Of a stretch of DNA of 64,000 bases, positions 1-10,109 are shown piece by piece; within the stretch, counting starts at the first letter, position 1; each line of letters begins with the position of its first letter. Source of the stretch: Calditrichaceae bacterium. GTDB taxonomy: Bacteria; Calditrichota; Calditrichia; Calditrichales; JBFXGD01. Position numbers and translations under genes: made by a program. Below the pieces are notes generated by a model. That model made no database searches, was not told the origin of the DNA, and was given only the letters and a program-made list of their open reading frames with translations. Location: NCBI GenBank assembly GCA_050173015.1, contig JBFXLE010000023.1, forward strand, positions 1 to 64,000, read 5' to 3'.

Positions 1-50
1 ATCTTTAATTTCTGTTCCGGGGTGATGCGTCTAACTGATTTTCTTGCCAT
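1..50 (-). CDS. 5' end of a gene truncated by the window edge (MARKSVRRITPEQKLK...)
   Basis: Minus-strand ATG at 50 preceded by an AGGAG Shine-Dalgarno; frame is open to the window edge. Confidence 0.6.
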   Translation of the reverse strand, partial: MARKSVRRITPEQKLK

Positions 51-304
51 GATATTACTCCTTATAACAAGGTTTAAATCATAGCACTAAATCTTTTTAA
101 AATTCCAATTTTGACTGAACCAATACAATTGCACTAATACGGAGTGACTGAACAATATTTTAGATAATATTAAATCAAGTATTATTGATATAAGGGACGA
201 ACTTTTATATTTGAGCCCTAGCCTATCGCGTAAATATAGGCACAAGATTCAGATACAATGTATAGACAATATGATAAAGAACTTGATTTGAACTGCTTGG
301 TTAT

Positions 305-2905
305 CTATCGAATCTTCGTAGCATCATCAACAAGAACTGAATTGTGCAACGAATCAAACAGGTGTTGTTTGAATTTGTTTTCATCTTCGTTATTATAAAA
401 TGGAACACCAATCAATCTATATTTTTTAGACTTGGAAAAGTCTAATAATTTACCGGCAAACCTTTTAGAAATTTCCTTTAGAAAATCCTGTTTCCACTTA
501 TCATGTTCTTTTAAGTGTTTCCCCTTAGGTTCGACAAAAAGTTGATAGGTTAAAAGTTGACCGGCTTTTTCTTTAAGAAATAGAACAAAGTCAGGTTCAA
601 ATGCACGACCATCAGAAAAGTTGTATATCTTAAAATGATTCTCATTTCGTATTAGATAAATTCCGTCATAGTTTTTCCTCAGAGAATCCATCTGGCGATC
701 TAACATTCGGACAAAAGCTTTCTCTTCACTTGTCCCATAATTTGCATTAAAAACATACCAATCTTTATCACCAACAAATTGCTCATCACCGTTCGCGCGT
801 TCATTATTTGAATGGAGTTTTAAAATTTTATTTTCAAAAATCTTGCTAAGATTATATGGCTTGAATTCAGAAGTACCTTTATATTCAGTTATGTTCTGCC
901 TTATTTCTATTTCAATTTGAGATAACAACCCTGAAACAGCCCCTAATAAATGCAAATTAGATAATTTGTATAGCTCCTCACCCTCACCCTGAAATGTTAT
1001 AGAAAGGCTGTTTAAATAATCATCTGATTTAATAAACTCGTCCATGCCTTTTAGTCGCGGAAAATACTCTTTTAGATTTGAAAATTTATAAAATGTATTC
1101 CTGCTGATGGAATTTTTGATGATATGATTTGGGATGTCGCTCATCTTAACATCTTTACGTCCTGATTCTATAACGGTTGATAATTTTGATTCAGCATTAA
1201 AGAGTGTTTCTGAAATCCCGTGACCTGTCGCTATGGAATAACTAAAATTACGCTGCATTACGCCAAAATCTGCAAATGAATTAACCTGTTCATAGCGATT
1301 TTTAACACGCTCATTTATATAAATGAGACCTTTTTCATAAAACGAATCCTGCCTGAAGTTATCTTTTAGCTCTAAAGGGAACACAACCTCATCATCATCC
1401 AATAAGCCTTCATTAATTAAAGCCGTGCGTAATTCTGAAATATAGCGCGAATCATTTATGCTGTGATAATGAAGTTCTTCCAAAATACGCAATTCATGTT
1501 TCAGATTATCATCGTACTTGCGCATGAATTTGTCATTTTTTCCATCAGCTATAAAAGGGAAATAGCGTGCGCCACGACCTATTAGCTGGGCCTCGGAGAT
1601 GGTTGTCTGGCCCGGCTTGCCTCCTTTTGAATCACGGGTTTCATAACAACGCACGATATCGAATAAATTCAGAACATCCCAACCTTCATTTAGCTTTTGC
1701 ACAGCAAAGATCGCGCGGATTGGATTGTCTTTGTCTTCTAAAGAATTTATGAGTATTTGTTGCGTTTCTTTTTCCTTTTCCTCATTTACAGACAGACAGC
1801 GACTCTCATTAAACTCTGTTTTGATACGGACAACCAATTGATTAAGACTGATATTATTCTCTTTAAAATAAACAAACGCCCGCTTGACTAAAAAAATATC
1901 AGTTTTGCTGCGAAGGCTGCGCAGGGACTCGGTAGTCAATTCTGAAATCAATTTGTGAAAGTTAGCTTTGTTGACTTTAGATTGTTCTATGGTACGCTGT
2001 GCTTTAAATAAAATAACCGGCTTCAGATTTATACGGTGCCGGGCAGCCACTTCCTGTTTATACTGGTTTAACACAAGAGCCTGAATAATCCGGTCGTTTT
2101 CATCAAGGTCGGCCTGTACAATGAACACATCTTTAGAATAGCGATCATTACGAAATTCTTTTAGATCATATCGATAAATTACTTTGTTTAGATACTTATC
2201 GACAATATGGCGATGCGTATAATCAAGAGTCGCAGTAAACTCAAGTAACAAATTATCTTCGCTCTGATGAAAAATTCGTTCAACCGTATCTTCCCAACTA
2301 TTGAAGAGTTGTTTCTCGGATTTTGTTTTAGTACTCATATGATGCGCTTCATCAGCAATGAGAACAATATTCTTATCTTTAAAATCCTCATAAGTCAGTG
2401 CATTCTCTTTTTCGATGGTTAAATCGAAATGAAGCTTTTGGATTGTCGTAAAGGCTATGCTAATTTCATCGGGATGCGTTGCTTCAAAATTATCAACCTG
2501 GCTAATGTTTACAATTTTAGAATGAATATTGATTTGTGAGTTGAATAGATATTTAGCAGATATCGGGTTTTGGAAATTGTCTTTGGTTTTCTCAATTATA
2601 TTTGTGGAATTCACAAAGAACAGAAAATTCCGATACCCCTGTTCATATAAGTAAAGAATTAATCCCGCCATAATTAGAGTTTTGCCGCTGCCGGTTGCCA
2701 TATTAAACAGAAAATGTAGCGGCCAGTCTTTTCCCGGAAAATCATTATGAAAGCAATGGAAAAAACGAGCAAAGGCTTCTTCCTGATAAGGGCGCAATTC
2801 AAACTTTGGATTAAGATTGTCTTTAAGAGATACCGGTATTTCTTTTTTAAGGAATCCCATGTTGGAAACAGCATCCAGTTCTTCATATAAAATCTTATCA
2901 GCCAT
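305..2905 (-). CDS. res: Type III restriction enzyme Res subunit (SF2 helicase + PD-(D/E)xK nuclease)
   Basis: Walker A MATGSGKT, DEAH, LNEGWDV, QLIGRGAR, C-terminal FEPDF...VEPKG; overlaps the mod stop. Confidence 0.92.
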   Translation of the reverse strand: MADKILYEELDAVSNMGFLKKEIPVSLKDNLNPKFELRPYQEEAFARFFHCFHNDFPGKDWPLHFLFNMATGSGKTLIMAGLILYLYEQGYRNFLFFVNSTNIIEKTKDNFQNPISAKYLFNSQINIHSKIVNISQVDNFEATHPDEISIAFTTIQKLHFDLTIEKENALTYEDFKDKNIVLIADEAHHMSTKTKSEKQLFNSWEDTVERIFHQSEDNLLLEFTATLDYTHRHIVDKYLNKVIYRYDLKEFRNDRYSKDVFIVQADLDENDRIIQALVLNQYKQEVAARHRINLKPVILFKAQRTIEQSKVNKANFHKLISELTTESLRSLRSKTDIFLVKRAFVYFKENNISLNQLVVRIKTEFNESRCLSVNEEKEKETQQILINSLEDKDNPIRAIFAVQKLNEGWDVLNLFDIVRCYETRDSKGGKPGQTTISEAQLIGRGARYFPFIADGKNDKFMRKYDDNLKHELRILEELHYHSINDSRYISELRTALINEGLLDDDEVVFPLELKDNFRQDSFYEKGLIYINERVKNRYEQVNSFADFGVMQRNFSYSIATGHGISETLFNAESKLSTVIESGRKDVKMSDIPNHIIKNSISRNTFYKFSNLKEYFPRLKGMDEFIKSDDYLNSLSITFQGEGEELYKLSNLHLLGAVSGLLSQIEIEIRQNITEYKGTSEFKPYNLSKIFENKILKLHSNNERANGDEQFVGDKDWYVFNANYGTSEEKAFVRMLDRQMDSLRKNYDGIYLIRNENHFKIYNFSDGRAFEPDFVLFLKEKAGQLLTYQLFVEPKGKHLKEHDKWKQDFLKEISKRFAGKLLDFSKSKKYRLIGVPFYNNEDENKFKQHLFDSLHNSVLVDDATKIR

Positions 2906-4874
2906 TATAAGAATCCTTATAAAATTGGCGGTTTAGTTCTTTGTCTTCGTCAGACACATTGAATTGTTCATCGTCAATCTCTGAGAGATTAACATAAAGC
3001 TGGTTTTTATCTAGGAGCTCCATCAATAATTTTTTTTGTTTTTCAAACCCATTTTCGTTTTCACCGATTAAAGTAAAATCTTCTATCGCATCTTGTGGGA
3101 TTGCAGGGTTTACATACCAGTTAAGAAAAGAGTTTTGGGATATATTTTTCCAGATTTTAATTAGATCCTCTGAAGTTTTTGACGATTGAATATTGTCTAT
3201 AAATGCTTCGTTATACTTCATTAACTCACAATAGAGAAAACCATCTTCAAATTTTTGTTTAAATAGAGCGCTTTTATTTTCAGTATTTTTATGTTCTATT
3301 AAATTACATATTCTATTCACACATATTTCTACATGTTCGTCTAATTGTTCTACTAAAATATATTTTCTATCACCACCATCTTCTTGATTTAATTCAAGAG
3401 TAGCATGAGCAGTAGTTCCACTTCCAGCAAAGAAATCAACTATTATATCATCATTTTTTGTTGTAAGTTTGATAATATCAAGAACTGTATAAATTGATTT
3501 AGGATAGCTAAATTCAGTTTCTCCAATTATTTTTTTCAACAAATTTGTACCATGAAATTCTGATTGATATTTTTTATCAATCCAAACATTTTTTATTACT
3601 TGTTGCTCATAATATTTATGCAAGATTTGTATTTTGTTATTTTCTTTTACAGCCTTGAAGTAATCTCCTACATTTAAATAATTGAAAGAATCTTTAATAT
3701 TTTTCCAAGAAAATTCACCACTATCTGTGATAGGGAAAATTTCATAATAGTTTGCTTTGTACTCAGTCGTTATGTCCTTTAAATCTTTACTTACATATAT
3801 TGGATACCAATTTTTTGGTCTTTTTTTGCGGGACCAAACAGTTCTCGCACGTAAAAAATTTTCATATCTATATCTGCCATTTTCATCTTTCAAATTAAAT
3901 GATTCAATAACTTTGTCATCGAGAGCAACCTTGTTAAATTCTGTGGCTTCTCTATTTTTTGCATATAGAAGCATATATTCACTATTCTCCGAAAGAAACT
4001 TTGCTTGATTCCGTCCCTTTGGATTATGTAATACCGTAATAATTCCAATTCTGTTGTCAATCCCAAAAATCTCATCAGCTATTGCGCCCAGATAGAACAA
4101 TTCAGCATGATCAATCGCAATTACTATGAATCCATCTTGTGTTAATAACTCTTTTCCTGTCTCTAATCTATTCTTCATAAAAGTAAGCCATGAAGAGTGA
4201 TTAAATGTGTTATTATATGAAAAAATATTTGCATCACCGCCGGTGTTATACGGTGGATCTATATAAATTAGTTTCACCTTCTCTCGGAATTGTTTTTTTA
4301 GTGTGTGCAAAGCAATAAGATTATTTCCTTTTATAATAATATTCTCGAGAAGTGTCCCTTCTTCATTTCTTAACAGACCATCAGCTTTTTGCACACCTTC
4401 TACTGTATATCTTTTCCAGCCAGTAAGCACCTTGGGATCAAGAAGCCGGTCAATTTCATCCCGAGCTAAAAGTTGATTAAAAAATATTTCTTTGCGCTTT
4501 TCTTCTTCTTTTGTTTGTCCGCCTTCCAACACACAATCTTTATAAGGCCAAACGAGGGATACTTCTCCACGTTCTTTTAAAAATTTGCCATCGATATTTA
4601 ATCCAATTTTATTTTTAAAACGAGTATAGGAATTAGTAAGGAAATTTTTCTCCGATATGTACTCAATGAATTTGTTGATATTGAAGATCCAATGTTTCTC
4701 TATTTCATCAAAAAATGTTTCTTTGATTTTAGTATCGGATAAAAGAAGTTTTACTAAATCGTGATCAATTTTCCAAGCGTGGTCAATAACCGCGGCTTTA
4801 ATGAGCTCACCTTCATCACCCACAAATCGAGTGTCCGTTTTTAGAATTGATATTAGTTTTTCATTGAATTGCAT
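2898..4874 (-). CDS. mod: Type III RM Mod subunit, beta-class adenine DNA methyltransferase
   Basis: IYIDPPY (motif IV) precedes DFFAGSGTT (motif I); ATG at 4874 (MQFNEK) preferred to the ORF-track start 4904. Confidence 0.92.
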   Translation of the reverse strand: MQFNEKLISILKTDTRFVGDEGELIKAAVIDHAWKIDHDLVKLLLSDTKIKETFFDEIEKHWIFNINKFIEYISEKNFLTNSYTRFKNKIGLNIDGKFLKERGEVSLVWPYKDCVLEGGQTKEEEKRKEIFFNQLLARDEIDRLLDPKVLTGWKRYTVEGVQKADGLLRNEEGTLLENIIIKGNNLIALHTLKKQFREKVKLIYIDPPYNTGGDANIFSYNNTFNHSSWLTFMKNRLETGKELLTQDGFIVIAIDHAELFYLGAIADEIFGIDNRIGIITVLHNPKGRNQAKFLSENSEYMLLYAKNREATEFNKVALDDKVIESFNLKDENGRYRYENFLRARTVWSRKKRPKNWYPIYVSKDLKDITTEYKANYYEIFPITDSGEFSWKNIKDSFNYLNVGDYFKAVKENNKIQILHKYYEQQVIKNVWIDKKYQSEFHGTNLLKKIIGETEFSYPKSIYTVLDIIKLTTKNDDIIVDFFAGSGTTAHATLELNQEDGGDRKYILVEQLDEHVEICVNRICNLIEHKNTENKSALFKQKFEDGFLYCELMKYNEAFIDNIQSSKTSEDLIKIWKNISQNSFLNWYVNPAIPQDAIEDFTLIGENENGFEKQKKLLMELLDKNQLYVNLSEIDDEQFNVSDEDKELNRQFYKDSYNG

Positions 4875-5052
4875 AATTTTCAGGTTCCTTATTTGAATTA
4901 ACAAGAAGTAATATAGAGAATTAAAAGGAAAATAACCTGATAAAAACTGTATAAAGTCTCACCATTTTTAACTAATTGCTTCATTTACCCATTGACGATA
5001 ATCACCAATCCTGTTCTCTATGTTGATTGTGTGATGATCTTGTTCGTTATTC

Positions 5053-6003
5053 TTATTCCTGTAATTTCCTTATAAACAGACTCCAATAATATTCGGCTGC
5101 CCCTTGCTTTGAATAGACATCCTGATGCCGGGCATCCTGCATTTGCAGGCCCAGCGGTTTAAGTTGCAGTGTGTATCCATTATCCACAACACTAATTGAC
5201 TCATTGTAACTGTTTCTTTGTACATTCCCGGAATATGAGTAGGCAATTTCTGACGAGCTATTAGTACTCTGCGCATAATAAACTGAGCATTCTGCAACTC
5301 TTTCACCATTGTCATAGATAAAGGCAGAGAAACTGGTTTCACTCAGACGTTTAAAGCGTGTTTTAATTTGTGGGTTTCGTTCTGTGAGTTCTTGTAGGGA
5401 TCCTTCGAAATAGCGTGCCATATACTCATAACTATCTTCTAAGAACTCATCCTTTTCATGGTCATCAAATTTTCTTTTAATTCTTAGATTACTCGAACGC
5501 TCTAAATCGGGCGTATCATTTTGTAAAGTCGTACCTTTTTGATCACTATTTACTTTAGAGGCGGATCCCAATTTATTAACCGCATCCCGCACATCTTTGG
5601 CTATAATTGCAAATGCTTCCTGTAGGTTTCCAAACATTGAAACCGGTTTTCCATCTAGGGGTGTCGCCCGTAGGAAGCCGAAAGGAGACGAATGCCAATC
5701 ACATGGATGCAAAATCACAGGGATGACTACTGCTTCTTTCTTATTATGTTTTTCAAGAGCAATTTTCATTTCCTTTTCGTAACAGTAATCCGATGCAAGA
5801 AAATGGGCGCTGACCAGAAGAAGGATAACTTGCGCTGCCTCAATCTCTGCATTAATCGTTTTGTCTAAATCCCTTCCAGCAGTGACACGTCGGTCATGCC
5901 ATGAAGTGATAATTCCCTGACGTTTTAAGAGTGCCAGGTGTATTTCTAATTCATTCCTCAGTTCTTCGTCTTTATGCGAATACGAAAAAAATAGCTTGGC
6001 CAT
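5053..6003 (-). CDS. TIR-domain protein (TIR_2-like N-terminus + unknown C-terminal domain)
   Basis: LFFSYSHKD...WHDRR...LLVSAHFLASDYCYEKEM...VIPVIL is a bacterial TIR signature; AAGGA RBS. Confidence 0.88.
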   Translation of the reverse strand: MAKLFFSYSHKDEELRNELEIHLALLKRQGIITSWHDRRVTAGRDLDKTINAEIEAAQVILLLVSAHFLASDYCYEKEMKIALEKHNKKEAVVIPVILHPCDWHSSPFGFLRATPLDGKPVSMFGNLQEAFAIIAKDVRDAVNKLGSASKVNSDQKGTTLQNDTPDLERSSNLRIKRKFDDHEKDEFLEDSYEYMARYFEGSLQELTERNPQIKTRFKRLSETSFSAFIYDNGERVAECSVYYAQSTNSSSEIAYSYSGNVQRNSYNESISVVDNGYTLQLKPLGLQMQDARHQDVYSKQGAAEYYWSLFIRKLQE

Positions 6004-6022
6004 AATATTTGATCCTTTAATT

Positions 6023-6331
6023 CTACAACATTTTTTTTAGTTGTTTAAGGAAAGCGATTAAGTTTCCTCCGGTAAAGTCTGGTTTATTTAATCCCCGTTG
6101 ATTCCATAGTTCCAAAATAATTTTCTCATCTGACCGCAGTGGTCTTCTACCGCCTCCGGTGTTGCCGCATGTTGGTGTCGATAATATAAAGTTTAAGTCG
6201 CCATCATTCACAATTACCGTTACACATACCGCAATTCCATCTTCCCGGCGCCGGTTAATTTGTTGACTGATCCAGCTTTCGTTTGCTTTATCATAATCCC
6301 TCTCAATACCTCCAATCTTAACTTTGATCAT
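6023..6331 (-). CDS. Hypothetical protein, 102 aa
   Basis: ATG with AAGGGG RBS; tightly packed between the HEPN-like and TIR genes. Confidence 0.75.
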   Translation of the reverse strand: MIKVKIGGIERDYDKANESWISQQINRRREDGIAVCVTVIVNDGDLNFILSTPTCGNTGGGRRPLRSDEKIILELWNQRGLNKPDFTGGNLIAFLKQLKKML

Positions 6332-6378
6332 ATCTGAACCCCTTATTCAATGTTGTACATATTTACTAAACAAAACTA

Positions 6379-7122
6379 TTAATATGTTTCGTCCAACTGA
6401 TTAACAAGGTTTTCAACATACATTTTCATACTAGTTGCCAATCGGGCTATCTCTTTGGAATCGAATTGGATTTTAGAAGATTCTCTAATCTTTGGTTTTA
6501 AGTTGCGTGGTACCGCACTGGCAATTTGTCTTAGCATTTTTTTATCTGGATTTGATCCAGAATGTACGATGACATGACGACAAGCTTGTCCCATAATGAT
6601 GTCATTGTTGATTTCATCCCGCACAATGTCAATATTTAAAAAATCCTTGAAACTTCTATTAATACTTTGCATATCCTGGAAGCTTATATTTTTTTTAGAA
6701 ATTATAATTTCCCCAATATGATCCCGTAGATTGAAATTAAATTCCGACATCTCCATCGGTGAAAGTTTAAACTCTTCAGAAAATGCTTTTTGATTTTTTA
6801 GAACATCGATATTTGAAGTAACATAGTATTTAAACAATTCAGTAATCGTTGACCCAAAATGAGACACGAGTAAAACAACACATTGGTTAAATATTTCCTG
6901 GTACTGTGTACGCATGGAATCATGAACTCTAATATTATTAAGGTCCTTTAGTGTTCTGGTAGCAAGTAAACTCTCATTCGTAAAATTTCTCTTTAACTTA
7001 TTTTGTAAATCTTCAATGGCTTTAATTGAATAATCCAGAACTACACGATCAAAATTTGCCAGACGATCTACGGCATCAATATTTTCCCGGAAAATTTTAA
7101 GCTGTTTTTGACCTTCACTCAT
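6379..7122 (-). CDS. Putative HEPN-superfamily RNase
   Basis: Helical-looking 247-aa protein with RX4H motif RHVIVH (about 6562-6579) in its C-terminal third. Confidence 0.6.
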   Translation of the reverse strand: MSEGQKQLKIFRENIDAVDRLANFDRVVLDYSIKAIEDLQNKLKRNFTNESLLATRTLKDLNNIRVHDSMRTQYQEIFNQCVVLLVSHFGSTITELFKYYVTSNIDVLKNQKAFSEEFKLSPMEMSEFNFNLRDHIGEIIISKKNISFQDMQSINRSFKDFLNIDIVRDEINNDIIMGQACRHVIVHSGSNPDKKMLRQIASAVPRNLKPKIRESSKIQFDSKEIARLATSMKMYVENLVNQLDETY

Positions 7123-7404
7123 AAATAAATCTTATATTTAGATTGGACATCACTTTCAAATGACATATCGGTATTCATTCTCCCCGTTAAAATGCTCTAT
7201 ATTTTCGTGAATATTAATCTAGTTAAATAGTGTCATACATCAATCAAAAATACTACTATGAAAATACCCGTATAATATTTTTTATAAAACGCGATAATCT
7301 TTTTTTATTTGAAGAAAATAAATTTAATAAGGAAAATAGCTACGGTTAAATATAATCAAATTATTTATGTAATCAAGGAATTTAAAGATGTTCTTTGTTA
7401 CGTT

Positions 7405-7452
7405 GGGAATGTATGCCGGGTGACGTTGATTGGGATCAGCGCCACCATTCCC
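7405..7452. repeat. GC-rich imperfect hairpin, possibly a degenerate REP-type element
   Basis: GGGAATG...CATTCCC outer stem enclosing GTGACGTTGAT-TGGG-ATCAGCGCCAC. Confidence 0.45.
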
Positions 7453-7502
7453 GCTCTTCAATTTTTACTTCTTACTTTCTGGTATTGATTTAATACAACA
7501 TA

Positions 7503-8904
7503 CAGGAAGCCCCGTAGGGGCGATAAATTGGTTCATTTATCCAGCCAGGGTAATTACGGTGCAAGCGTCCGGCATAATGTTTCGCTCCGATGGAGCTTAA
7601 TTAATATTAGTAAGTTGTTTTTCTACAAAGATATTGCTCCTACGGAGCTCATTTTGTTTCAATTTTTAGATTGTAGATTTGGCTCACCTGTGACCAAATA
7701 TAGATTATTTCATGATGTTTTCTTCATGGTGTAAATTAATAATCGGTTTTTCATTTTTGCTGCTTTAATTCCGGCGGTCAAAGCTCCGCAGGAGCGACAT
7801 ATTTGTAGGTATAGATTTATTTCAAAATGCAGGAAGCCCTGTAGGGGCGATAAATTGGTTCCTTTATCCAGCCAGGGTAATTACGGTGTAAGCGTCTGGC
7901 ATAATGTTTCGCTCCAATGGAGCTGAATTGATACTAGTAAATTATTTTTCTACAAAGATATTGCTCCTACGGAGCTCATTTTGTTTCAATTTTTAGATTG
8001 TAGATTTGGCTCACCTGTGACCAAATATAGATTATTTCATGATGTTTTCTTCATGGTGTAAATTAATAATCGGTTTTTCATTTTTGCTGCTTTAATTCCG
8101 GCGGTCAAAGCTCCGCAGGAGCGACATATTTGTAGGTATAGATTTATTTCAAAATGCAGGAAGCCCTGTAGGGGCGATAAATTGGTTCCTTTATCCAGCC
8201 AGGGTAATTACGGTGTAAGCGTCTGGCATAATGTTTCGCTCCAATGGAGCTGAATTGATACTAGTAAATTATTTTTCTACAAAGATATTGCTCCTACGGA
8301 GCTCATTTTGTTTCAATTTTTAGATTGTAGATTTGGCTCACCTGTGACCAAATATAGATTATTTCATGATGTTTTCTTCATGGTGTAAATTAATAATCGG
8401 TTTTTCATTTTTGCTGCTTTAATTCCGGCGGTCAAAGCTCCGCAGGAGCGACATATTTGTAGGTATAGATTTATTTCAAAATGCAGGAAGCCCTGTAGGG
8501 GCGATAAATTGGTTCCTTTATCCAGCCAGGGTAATTACGGTGTAAGCGTCTGGCATAATGTTTCGCTCCAATGGAGCTGAATTGATACTAGTAAATTATT
8601 TTTCTACAAAGATATTGCTCCTACGGAGCTCATTTTGTTTCAATTTTTAGATTGTAGATTTGGCTCACCTGTGACCAAATATAGATTATTTCATGATGTT
8701 TTCTTCATGGTGTAAATTAATAATCGGTTTTTCATTTTTGCTGCTTTAATCCCGGTGGTCAAAGCTCCGCAGGAGCGATAAATTGGTTTATTAATCCATC
8801 CCGGGTTATTACAGTTTAAATGTCTGGCATAAGGTTACGCTCCGATGGAGCTTAATTAATATTAGTAAGTTGTTTTTCTACAAAGATATTGCTCCTACGG
8901 AGCT
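7503..8904. repeat. Tandem array of about 4.3 x 327-bp units made of REP-like palindromes (BIME/REPIN-like)
   Basis: CAGGAAGCCC recurs at 7503, 7830, 8157 and 8484 (period 327); four GCTCC/GCCCY-nnn-GGAGC/GGGGC palindromes per unit. Confidence 0.95.
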
Positions 8905-8934
8905 TGCTAAACAATGCTAAATATTTTTCCGCTC

Positions 8935-8963
8935 TTTACTTCTTACTTCCTACTTCTCACTTC
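8935..8963. repeat. Heptamer short tandem repeat (TACTTCY) overlapping the dipeptidase stop
   Basis: tttacttcttacttcctacttctcacttc; the same motif occurs at 7464-7477 and around 63441-63678. Confidence 0.7.
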
Positions 8964-10109
8964 CCCCAGGACTCTCTCAAAATTCCCGCCCAGAATCTTG
9001 CGGATGGAATCTTCGCTGTACCCCCTGCGCAGCAGCTCCTTGGTGATGGCCGGCATTTTGGAAACATTTTCCAACCCGGCCGGGGGAATCGATATGCCGT
9101 CAAAATCGGAACCGAGACCCACATGATCATCACCGACAAGCCGTACCACATAGTCGATATGATCCGCGATGACACGAACACCGGGATAAAGGGAGTCGAT
9201 TCGGCTGTGAATAAAAGCCGCGCGGTCAAACGGCTCATCCGATCCGGCCGTTTTGAGGGAATCTTCAATAGCGTCCGCGTCTTTTCTGGACTGCCGGTAT
9301 ATTCCGTCAAATCCTTCCACCAGAAATCCGGGATAAAAATTGATAAACATGACCCCGCCGTTTATCGCCAGCGCGCGGATCTGATCATCCTTCAGATTCC
9401 GGTAATGGGGGCAAATGGCGTAAACCGATGAATGGGATGCGATCACCGGTTTTGTAGAAGCAGCCAAAACATCATAAAATGTCCGTTCACCCGAATGGGA
9501 AAGATCGATAATCATACCCAATTCATTCATTCGCCGGATAACTTCTCTGCCAAATGCCGTCAGTCCGTGATGTCCCTTCCAGGCGGGATTGGCTTCATCC
9601 CGCGCTGAGCTGGCCCAAGCGGTACTGTTATTCCAGGTAAGTCCGAGATATCGCGCGCCGCGTTGATATAATTCATCCAGTTTGTTCAGGTCATTTTCGA
9701 TGGCTGTCCCACCCTCGACGCCGATAAACGCCGCGATTTTCTTTTCATCAACAGTCTCCTGCAATTGAAGCGGTGAATCGCTAAACAGGATTTTATCATC
9801 ATTACGCCGGAAAATCTGATGAAGGGTGTCGATCATGGCCATAGTGGTATCAAACATTTGTTCGCCCGGCACATGACGCGGATCGGGCCAGACGGCAAAA
9901 AACACCGCGTCCACTCCCCCCTTCCGCAGCCTGTCAAGATCAACCTGACCTTTTAATGAATAATGCTCAATATCTTCCCCCTTCAGATGGCGGAGCAGGA
10001 CATCGGTATGCATGTCGGCTACCAGGGCCCGGTCATGTATTTTTTGATAATTTTGCTGCGCGAAAAGATTGATCGTGAGCAGAGTAAGTAGCAATAGGGT
10101 GATTCGCAA
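8943..10109 (-). CDS. Membrane dipeptidase (peptidase M19) with signal peptide
   Basis: DMHTD, GVEGG, DLSH, ASHS, HVGLGSDFDG, ILGGNF motifs. Confidence 0.92.
   Translation of the reverse strand: MRITLLLLTLLTINLFAQQNYQKIHDRALVADMHTDVLLRHLKGEDIEHYSLKGQVDLDRLRKGGVDAVFFAVWPDPRHVPGEQMFDTTMAMIDTLHQIFRRNDDKILFSDSPLQLQETVDEKKIAAFIGVEGGTAIENDLNKLDELYQRGARYLGLTWNNSTAWASSARDEANPAWKGHHGLTAFGREVIRRMNELGMIIDLSHSGERTFYDVLAASTKPVIASHSSVYAICPHYRNLKDDQIRALAINGGVMFINFYPGFLVEGFDGIYRQSRKDADAIEDSLKTAGSDEPFDRAAFIHSRIDSLYPGVRVIADHIDYVVRLVGDDHVGLGSDFDGISIPPAGLENVSKMPAITKELLRRGYSEDSIRKILGGNFERVLGEVRSRK

Follow-up and report, generated by a model that had tools for sequence, protein, structure and literature searches.

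Several described defence systems resemble parts of the locus presented here. PrrC and RloC, the anticodon nucleases that back up restriction-modification (R-M) systems, carry an NTPase domain of the ATPase/ABC type, and retrons of type VI are described as having only a helix-turn-helix (HTH) partner. In Thoeris, the TIR protein ThsB is accompanied by an effector, the known ones including ThsA (SIR2-SLOG) and proteins of the Macro-TM, caspase-like, DUF2270 and DUF6650 kinds. Yirmiya et al. 2025 (bioRxiv 10.64898/2025.12.03.692087), as far as the accessible part of that preprint goes, set out 29 putative Thoeris types, defined by the variable genes beside the TIRs; these TIR-adjacent genes are regarded as putative signal-activated effectors, and DUF2188 is named as one putative, untested effector. 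The stretch of DNA analysed here comprises the first 64,000 nucleotides of contig JBFXLE010000023.1 (assembly GCA_050173015.1) of a Calditrichaceae bacterium and is called the window throughout. Close to its beginning, a gene for a HEPN-like protein of 247 amino acids (aa), a gene for a 102-aa protein and a gene for a 316-aa TIR protein (TIR-Y4lF) lie next to the type III R-M genes mod and res. A preliminary description of this DNA had proposed that the three genes form a new anti-phage cassette, possibly one that guards the R-M system. The supposed cassette instead falls into two modules, independent of each other, with a type III R-M system next to them, and its TIR component belongs to a catalogued family. 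With a probability of roughly 0.55, positions 1-9000 are best read as a low-GC defence island with three independent layers, namely the HEPN-like gene, the 102-aa/TIR pair and type III mod-res.

The three genes in question are as follows.

6379..7122, minus strand: HEPN-like gene, 247 aa (open reading frame list, homologues, alignment, AlphaFold2 model)
6023..6331, minus strand: 102-aa gene, of a family without annotation (open reading frame list, homologues)
5053..6003, minus strand: TIR-Y4lF gene, 316 aa (PADLOC, Pfam, homologues)

The layout given in the preliminary description was recovered at the same coordinates, with all three open reading frames (ORFs) on the minus strand, intergenic gaps of 47 bp (6332-6378) and 19 bp (6004-6022), and 178 bp between the TIR stop at 5053 and the mod ATG at 4874. 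Purine-rich words resembling ribosome-binding sites were likewise found where it had placed them, AAGGGG before the 102-aa gene and AAAGGA before the TIR gene; none was seen upstream of the 247-aa gene. Since each of the three has many homologues (99 for the 247-aa protein, 75 for the 102-aa protein, and 6016 for the TIR protein, a figure which takes in TIR proteins generally), none of these ORFs is a product of chance and the genes are real.

Co-occurrence of the three genes

The linkage between the 102-aa and TIR genes was assessed by searching for identical longest-contig sizes between the listed homologue clusters of the two families, 74 for the 102-aa protein and 119 for the TIR protein. 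Nineteen sizes are common to both sets, nine of which are contigs of 6.7-39 kb, against one for the control comparison of the 102-aa and 247-aa families and two for that of the TIR and 247-aa families; the control overlaps are all short, and two of the three are physically impossible. For two of the shared contigs the organism named also agrees between the families (Desulfobacteraceae, 20153 bp, and Ca. Anammoxibacter, 17421 bp), and a shared contig of 1435 bp would have room for both genes (1263 bp) only if they adjoin. From these comparisons the 102-aa gene and the TIR-Y4lF gene emerge as a conserved pair, a conclusion which outside the window is drawn from such metadata.

The surroundings of the 247-aa gene were studied by a family-alignment scan, keeping one genome per species, which gave 52 loci from many phyla with relatives at 31-55% identity. 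None of the 52 has a relative of the 102-aa or TIR-Y4lF gene within 10 kb, whether searched by tblastn or by profile hidden Markov model (HMM), and the 247-aa family is absent from all 10 TIR or 102-aa loci examined. When the ORFs within 5 kb of the 247-aa relatives were clustered, no neighbour family was present in more than 5 of the 52 loci. The longest-contig sizes of the closest 247-aa relatives also show no matches to the 102-aa and TIR families beyond chance. With no co-occurrence and no conserved neighbour, the 247-aa gene stands outside a three-gene system. It travels as independent cargo, to some extent preferentially in defence islands, its link to R-M genes being a minority pattern. 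The single multi-gene module of the preliminary description thus holds for the 102-aa/TIR pair but not for the HEPN-like gene, whose homologues do not co-occur with those of the other two.

A single system of HEPN-like, 102-aa and TIR genes, possibly guarding the type III R-M, would fit the common strand, the gaps of 47 and 19 bp without a terminator-like site between the genes, and the low-GC island shared with mod-res. Beside the missing co-occurrence in both directions, the contig-size overlap of the 247-aa family with either of the others is at chance level, and no type III R-M system adjoins the TIR-Y4lF gene in any of the 9 plasmid loci examined. This three-gene arrangement is therefore highly improbable, and already largely refuted by the absent co-occurrence.

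The TIR-Y4lF protein and its small neighbour

The 316-aa protein can be divided as follows.

Residues ~1-147, 6003..5563, minus strand: TIR domain (Pfam, AlphaFold2 model)
Codon 5770-5772, minus strand: Glu78, the residue at the catalytic position (alignment)
Residues 148-176: disordered linker (AlphaFold2 model)
Residues ~169-316: C-terminal TIRY4lF domain (PF27176)

The N-terminal TIR seen in the preliminary description was confirmed by Pfam (TIR_2, E 1.6e-14, residues 5-107; TIR, E 5e-9). E78 (in SDYCYEKEM), which we take to be the catalytic residue from its position in the motif and not from a superposition, is invariant in 44 TIR sequences down to 38% identity, while the nearby E76 varies. 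The claim that the locus matches no named system did not hold for this gene. It is a full-length member of the PADLOC model PDLC00420 (ThsB1|ThsB), with E 3.7e-115 over residues 1-315 and positions 1-316 of the 319 in the model, and it also carries PF27176; the Pfam family ThsB_TIR reaches it only below the cutoff (E 0.0031). PF27176.1 is assigned by precomputed Pfam annotation to the protein and to all 120 homologues among the matches listed (65-75% identical), and a feature search in the Atlas with residues 168-316 gave clusters that are 97-98% PF27176, with a score of 0.93. The name TIRY4lF is supplied by the Atlas, and its namesake appears to be the pNGR234a protein found as match H10; a literature search for y4lF returned nothing relevant. 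Separate Atlas clusters contain proteins of ~142-155 aa made of the TIRY4lF domain alone; one of these clusters is 43% PF27176 and has few taxon-labelled members, mostly from tailed phages. This hints that the domain can act alone or be used by phages. The TIR protein itself had no match in the phage collection.

In the AlphaFold2 model, the TIR fold is followed by a C-terminal domain in which a six-stranded sheet lies between two helices. Foldseek returned TIR structures only, with a probability of 1.00 to plant, bacterial and animal TIRs, including SPARTA TIR-APAZ, Cat1 (CRISPR-associated TIR 1) and BtpA. The best sequence relative in the PDB is Cat1 (E 6.2e-10, residues 1-98) and the second PADLOC match is SAVED-TIR, so that the nearest relatives of the TIR sequence outside its own family are effector TIRs which deplete NAD+. 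Unlike Cat1, SAVED-TIR and SPARTA TIR-APAZ, which are its closest sequence relatives or Foldseek matches, the TIR protein of the window has no CARF, SAVED or APAZ domain, lacks an Argonaute or cyclase partner and has a PF27176 C-terminus. As the preliminary description had stated, no ThsA, cyclase, NLR or Argonaute partner is visible in the 64 kb. Neither ThsA nor any other Thoeris effector was found by PADLOC v2.0.0, which predates types IV-XI, among the five island proteins and 44 further ORFs of the window, the latter giving only weak matches to mad2/mad3/mad8 and PDC-S09. The resemblance to ThsB thus lies in the end-to-end match to its model and in the TIR at the N-terminus, whose catalytic position holds a conserved Glu, while the difference is that no effector recognised by PADLOC accompanies the gene, its neighbour being a 102-aa protein of no described family.

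The 102-aa protein belongs to a family with 75 close homologue clusters, and with 758 clusters at 50% identity (E<=1e-3) from many phyla. Members have about 100 aa in all 150 listed of the 758, once likely mis-called starts are discounted. The conserved features are WINQQINRRR, STPTC, a Gly-rich loop and the C-terminal FTGGNLIAFLKQL, with W20, C55 and W76. Searches of Pfam, PADLOC, NCBIfam and PHROGs and of the PDB sequences gave no match to the protein, and no transmembrane segment or enzyme motif was recognised by the libraries scanned; its Atlas model (predicted TM-score 0.77) has no fold match above a TM-score of 0.5. Like the 247-aa family, it is undescribed in every library searched, and literature searches yield no name for either; nor does either protein match, in PADLOC or Pfam, any of the known Thoeris effectors listed above. 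Two possible kinships were examined with hhalign and rejected, the family being unrelated both to DUF2188 (probability 0.04%, and no Pfam match) and to the 161-aa neighbour of the NGR234 homologue (0.29%). Plasmids searched by tblastn gave no match, also when the phage homologue described next was used as query. The sole match in the phage collection is a 99-aa protein with 38% identity, encoded in the accessory region of a filamentous phage, the Vibrio inovirus vB_Vipa4291 (L062, 5001-6155). It lies 144 bp upstream of a gene for a 236-aa protein resembling phospholipase D (PLD), the C-terminus of which matches PADLOC PDC-S69, and not upstream of a TIR gene. As no transmembrane segment or enzyme motif was recognised, and as the phage homologue precedes a PLD-like gene, we read the 102-aa protein as a regulator and not as an effector.

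Relatives of TIR-Y4lF are present on 50 plasmid records at 31-49% identity, 28 of them full length, and these plasmid homologues outscore the protein of the window on PDLC00420. Nine of the loci were examined for their context, and no 102-aa relative was found in any of them, either by tblastn or by a profile run on their ORFs. On plasmid A of N. oceani (L053), a DUF2188 gene (PADLOC PDC-S16) lies 21 bp upstream of the TIR-Y4lF gene. The small soluble protein directly upstream is common to this arrangement and to the window, where the gap is 19 bp; the families of the two small proteins differ, and TIR with DUF2188 is itself a predicted configuration in the Yirmiya et al. preprint. In two plasmids from Roseobacteraceae (L056 and L057, each 2789-4966), a type VI retron (HTH_VI, E 6e-30; RT_VI, E 1.7e-84) ends 19 bp before the TIR-Y4lF gene on the same strand, and the TIR may be an added effector of that retron or its neighbour. 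In pNGR234a and a Bradyrhizobium plasmid (L058, 4983-5468; L059, 2135-2599), a gene for a protein of ~155 aa lies 2-10 bp downstream of TIR-Y4lF; the two proteins share 39% identity (E 3e-35), match nothing in Pfam or PADLOC, and are candidates for a second, different partner family. A Caballeronia plasmid has a PDC-S11 gene beside TIR-Y4lF. No obvious partner is present in the remaining three of the nine, from Desulfosarcina (where TIR-Y4lF lies behind DISARM-like genes), P. aeruginosa and Comamonas (L054, L055 and L060). The defence genes near the plasmid homologues are DISARM-like, AbiEii, retron type VI, PDC-S11 and PDC-S16. Because the neighbours of TIR-Y4lF differ, and the phage homologue of the 102-aa protein precedes a PLD-like gene, partnering looks combinatorial on both sides.

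These contexts bear on two other ways of reading the pair. In the first, which is Thoeris-like, TIR-Y4lF would be a ThsB that senses phage by its C-terminal domain and makes an ADP-ribose-derived signal, for which the 102-aa protein would be a small soluble effector or receptor. This would agree with the end-to-end match to PDLC00420, with the DUF2188 gene that occupies the same upstream position in the N. oceani plasmid, with the switching of partner family between TIR-Y4lF clades, as is the case for Thoeris effectors, and with the Gly-rich loop, invariant Trp and conserved Arg of the 102-aa protein, which could bind a nucleotide. Preprint 10.64898/2025.12.03.692087 moreover defines its types by TIR-adjacent variable genes, and the 102-aa/TIR pair may already be among the 29. 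However, no membrane segment or catalytic domain was recognised in the 102-aa protein, TIR-Y4lF is found without a partner in 3/9 plasmid loci, the phage homologue adjoins a PLD-like gene and not a signal producer, and ThsB_TIR remains below its cutoff. A Thoeris-like pair is the main alternative to the reading preferred here, to be held tentatively. A more far-reaching version is doubtful, namely that immune TIR enzymes have a new class of soluble partners of very small size, of which the 102-aa protein would be the founding member, in a widespread signalling system that has no name; it could then serve as a minimal effector of the Thoeris kind, or as a buffer encoded by the host, binding a TIR-made ADP-ribose derivative via the Gly-rich loop and its Trp and Arg residues.

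In the second, the pair would work as a toxin-antitoxin module for addiction, keeping the island or plasmids stable, and would have no dedicated anti-phage role. A small gene 19 bp upstream of a potentially toxic predicted NADase is what such a module would look like, and both the 50 plasmid records and the combinatorial-looking partnering in the two directions are in line with it, but the surroundings are rich in defence genes on the plasmids and include a type III R-M system here. We regard a pure addiction role as unlikely, although it overlaps with the explanation preferred here, since defence is also a function of many toxin-antitoxin modules. Most probably, the pair consists of a TIR NADase and a small partner dedicated to it. 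TIR-Y4lF is read as a self-contained sensor and NADase because it can stand alone, because its nearest relatives are effector TIRs, and because the 102-aa protein looks regulatory.

The HEPN-like protein and its surroundings

The RX4H motif reported in the preliminary description was located in the 247-aa protein as R182-H-V-I-V-H187 (codons 6579..6562); in an alignment of 40 members of the family, neither R182 nor H187 varies. The same alignment contains a second invariant motif, SFQDMxS, at residues 147-153. The AlphaFold2 model, with a mean predicted local distance difference test (pLDDT) of 94.1, contains helices only. Pfam HEPN_RiboL-PSP matches the protein with E 1.1e-3 and 19.4 bits, the cutoff being 28.4, and reaches E<=0.01 in 10/40 members, the best of them (E 9.4e-4) also below the cutoff. 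None of the 99 homologues is named or has a Pfam domain, and the protein itself has no match in PADLOC, the PDB sequences or plasmids, and only sub-cutoff ones in NCBIfam and PHROGs. Foldseek against the PDB found nothing at E<=0.001, the top matches being Csm6 chains with E 0.19 and a TM-score of 0.18. A comparison of the model with BFVD gave two uncharacterised phage proteins (E 4.5e-5, TM-score 0.49; E 1.3e-2, TM-score 0.47), which name nothing. We call the protein HEPN-like, given that the Rx4H motif and an all-helical fold are present while the evidence for a named family is weak. It shares with ApeA/Tha and HEPN_RiboL-PSP proteins an all-alpha fold and the invariant Rx4H, and also a gene that stands alone and lies in part of the cases among defence genes (ApeA/Tha being compared by name and not by sequence), and differs from the named HEPN families in having no significant sequence or structure match to them.

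Among the 95 ORFs that flank the 247-aa relatives, the functions are mixed. Twelve match PADLOC families, in 11/52 loci and including one generic TPR match; type IIG R-M, NERD-UvrD, patatin, PDC-S35 TIR, WYL and capP-like proteins are among these. Other flanks are housekeeping genes (aldehyde dehydrogenase, a DNA gyrase/topoisomerase IV subunit A family protein, AcrB, sulfatase) or belong to mobile elements (integrase, resolvase). In one locus (L004, 4651-9498), the 247-aa relative lies between genes for a PDC-M65B protein (E 2e-108) and a NERD+UvrD helicase (PADLOC C3a187, E 7e-188), with one junction of 10 bp and the other overlapping, which may be a local multi-gene arrangement.

In 4/52 loci (L018, L027, L033 and L049), the 247-aa relative follows a type IIG R-M gene on the same strand at a distance of 2-34 bp. 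These four, together with the island which the gene of the window shares with a type III R-M system, are what suggests a back-up nuclease in the manner of PrrC and RloC, which the adjacent restriction enzyme would keep silent until a phage puts that enzyme out of action. As with PrrC and RloC, a putative RNase gene then lies beside R-M genes, though in a minority of cases. In the other 48 loci R-M is not the immediate neighbour and many neighbours are housekeeping genes, and within the window the TIR pair separates the 247-aa gene from mod-res. The protein is also much smaller than PrrC and RloC and lacks their NTPase domain. Such a back-up role is improbable, and of the R-M guard put forward in the preliminary description there remain the four loci with type IIG R-M, consistent embedding among R-M genes not being found.

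The island, its layers and their meaning

The R-M genes that lie downstream of the TIR gene are the following.

2898..4874, minus strand: type III R-M mod (PADLOC MTase_III, Pfam)
305..2905, minus strand: type III R-M res (PADLOC REase_III, Pfam)

Mod matches PADLOC MTase_III (E 8.2e-137) and Pfam N6_N4_Mtase and TypeIII_RM_meth, and Res matches PADLOC REase_III (E 1.6e-148, residues 18-862) and Pfam ResIII. The word AAGGAA lies 10 nt upstream of the mod ATG (4874). A start at 4904, where the first TTG in frame is found, would leave 148 bp to the TIR stop, and Mod has 668 aa when counted from this TTG. Res has 866 aa, and the two genes overlap by 8 bp. With both matches strong and the genes adjacent, mod-res is by its sequence a complete type III R-M system, and a neighbouring separate one. 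Of the proteins discussed, the PADLOC models thus recognise the TIR protein and mod-res but neither the 102-aa nor the 247-aa protein. The presence of defence-type genes beside a type III R-M system, as first described, is borne out by the Rx4H gene, the TIR gene and the low-GC island. The AT-rich block is also real, the GC fraction being 0.28-0.40 in the nine 1-kb windows of 1-9000 compared with 0.37-0.51 in the other 55. The island contains neither a tRNA gene nor a match to Rfam at the gathering threshold. A scan of 4700-7500 for promoters and terminators gave counts not above those of shuffled sequences, with no site between the three genes.

Beyond the island, and before the first gene of core appearance (a dipeptidase-like ORF, 8943-10109), there are four tandem copies of a 327-bp unit with 98% identity (7481-8778), with related copies from ~7430 to ~8920. 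Each unit contains a long hairpin (194 nt, -56.3 kcal/mol, z -4.7 compared with shuffles). In Rfam, the unit has only a match resembling a miRNA precursor, far below threshold (22.8 bits, compared with 100), and blastn against plasmids gave no match. The repeat may be a marker of the island boundary.

The data establish the structures of the genes, their conserved residues and families, the independence of the HEPN-like gene and the linkage of the 102-aa gene to the TIR gene; every enzymatic activity, the role in defence and that of the 102-aa partner are inferred. If the island is a defence island of three independent layers, they could operate as follows. With other HEPN proteins as a guide, Arg182 and His187 of the HEPN-like protein would make up an RNase site, and the gene would most likely be a single-gene, Rx4H-dependent abortive-infection RNase. 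In the second layer, the TIR domain (Glu78) would consume NAD+ when infection is sensed, the C-terminal Y4lF domain serving as the sensor or driving oligomerisation, and the 102-aa protein would be a clade-specific partner which restrains or adapts the TIR enzyme, like an antitoxin or regulator. The third layer would be the complete type III mod-res system.

Several points weigh against this reading. The adjacency of the 102-aa and TIR genes is seen directly in the window, and elsewhere follows from matching contig sizes, of which the short ones may also agree fortuitously, as 956, 1583 and 1950 do in the controls. The gaps of 47 and 19 bp, with no terminator-like site between the genes, make it possible that all three are co-transcribed here. 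The closest relatives of the 247-aa protein (64-70% identity) are known as proteins only, so that the DNA context covered is that of the loci at 31-55% identity, and membership of this protein in the HEPN families is not firmly established, the Pfam match being below cutoff and the best Foldseek E value against the PDB 0.19. The model of the TIR protein is only moderate (pLDDT 71.9), the PLD-like neighbour of the phage homologue is one case, and literature searches found no experiment on any of the three families. The ThsB label in PADLOC, together with what the 2025 preprint says of putative effectors adjacent to TIRs, favours the signalling alternative.

The locus illustrates that tight spacing and shared orientation within a defence island do not amount to a system at the level of an operon. 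With the HEPN-like family (99 close homologues and 52 loci), the known cargo of defence islands would gain a candidate RNase that is compact and encoded by a single gene. If the 102-aa/TIR pair defends against phages, a large unannotated family (758 clusters at 50% identity) would gain a role, and this would bear on a question arising from recent work on Thoeris, that of TIR modules whose tiny neighbour has no obvious killing domain.

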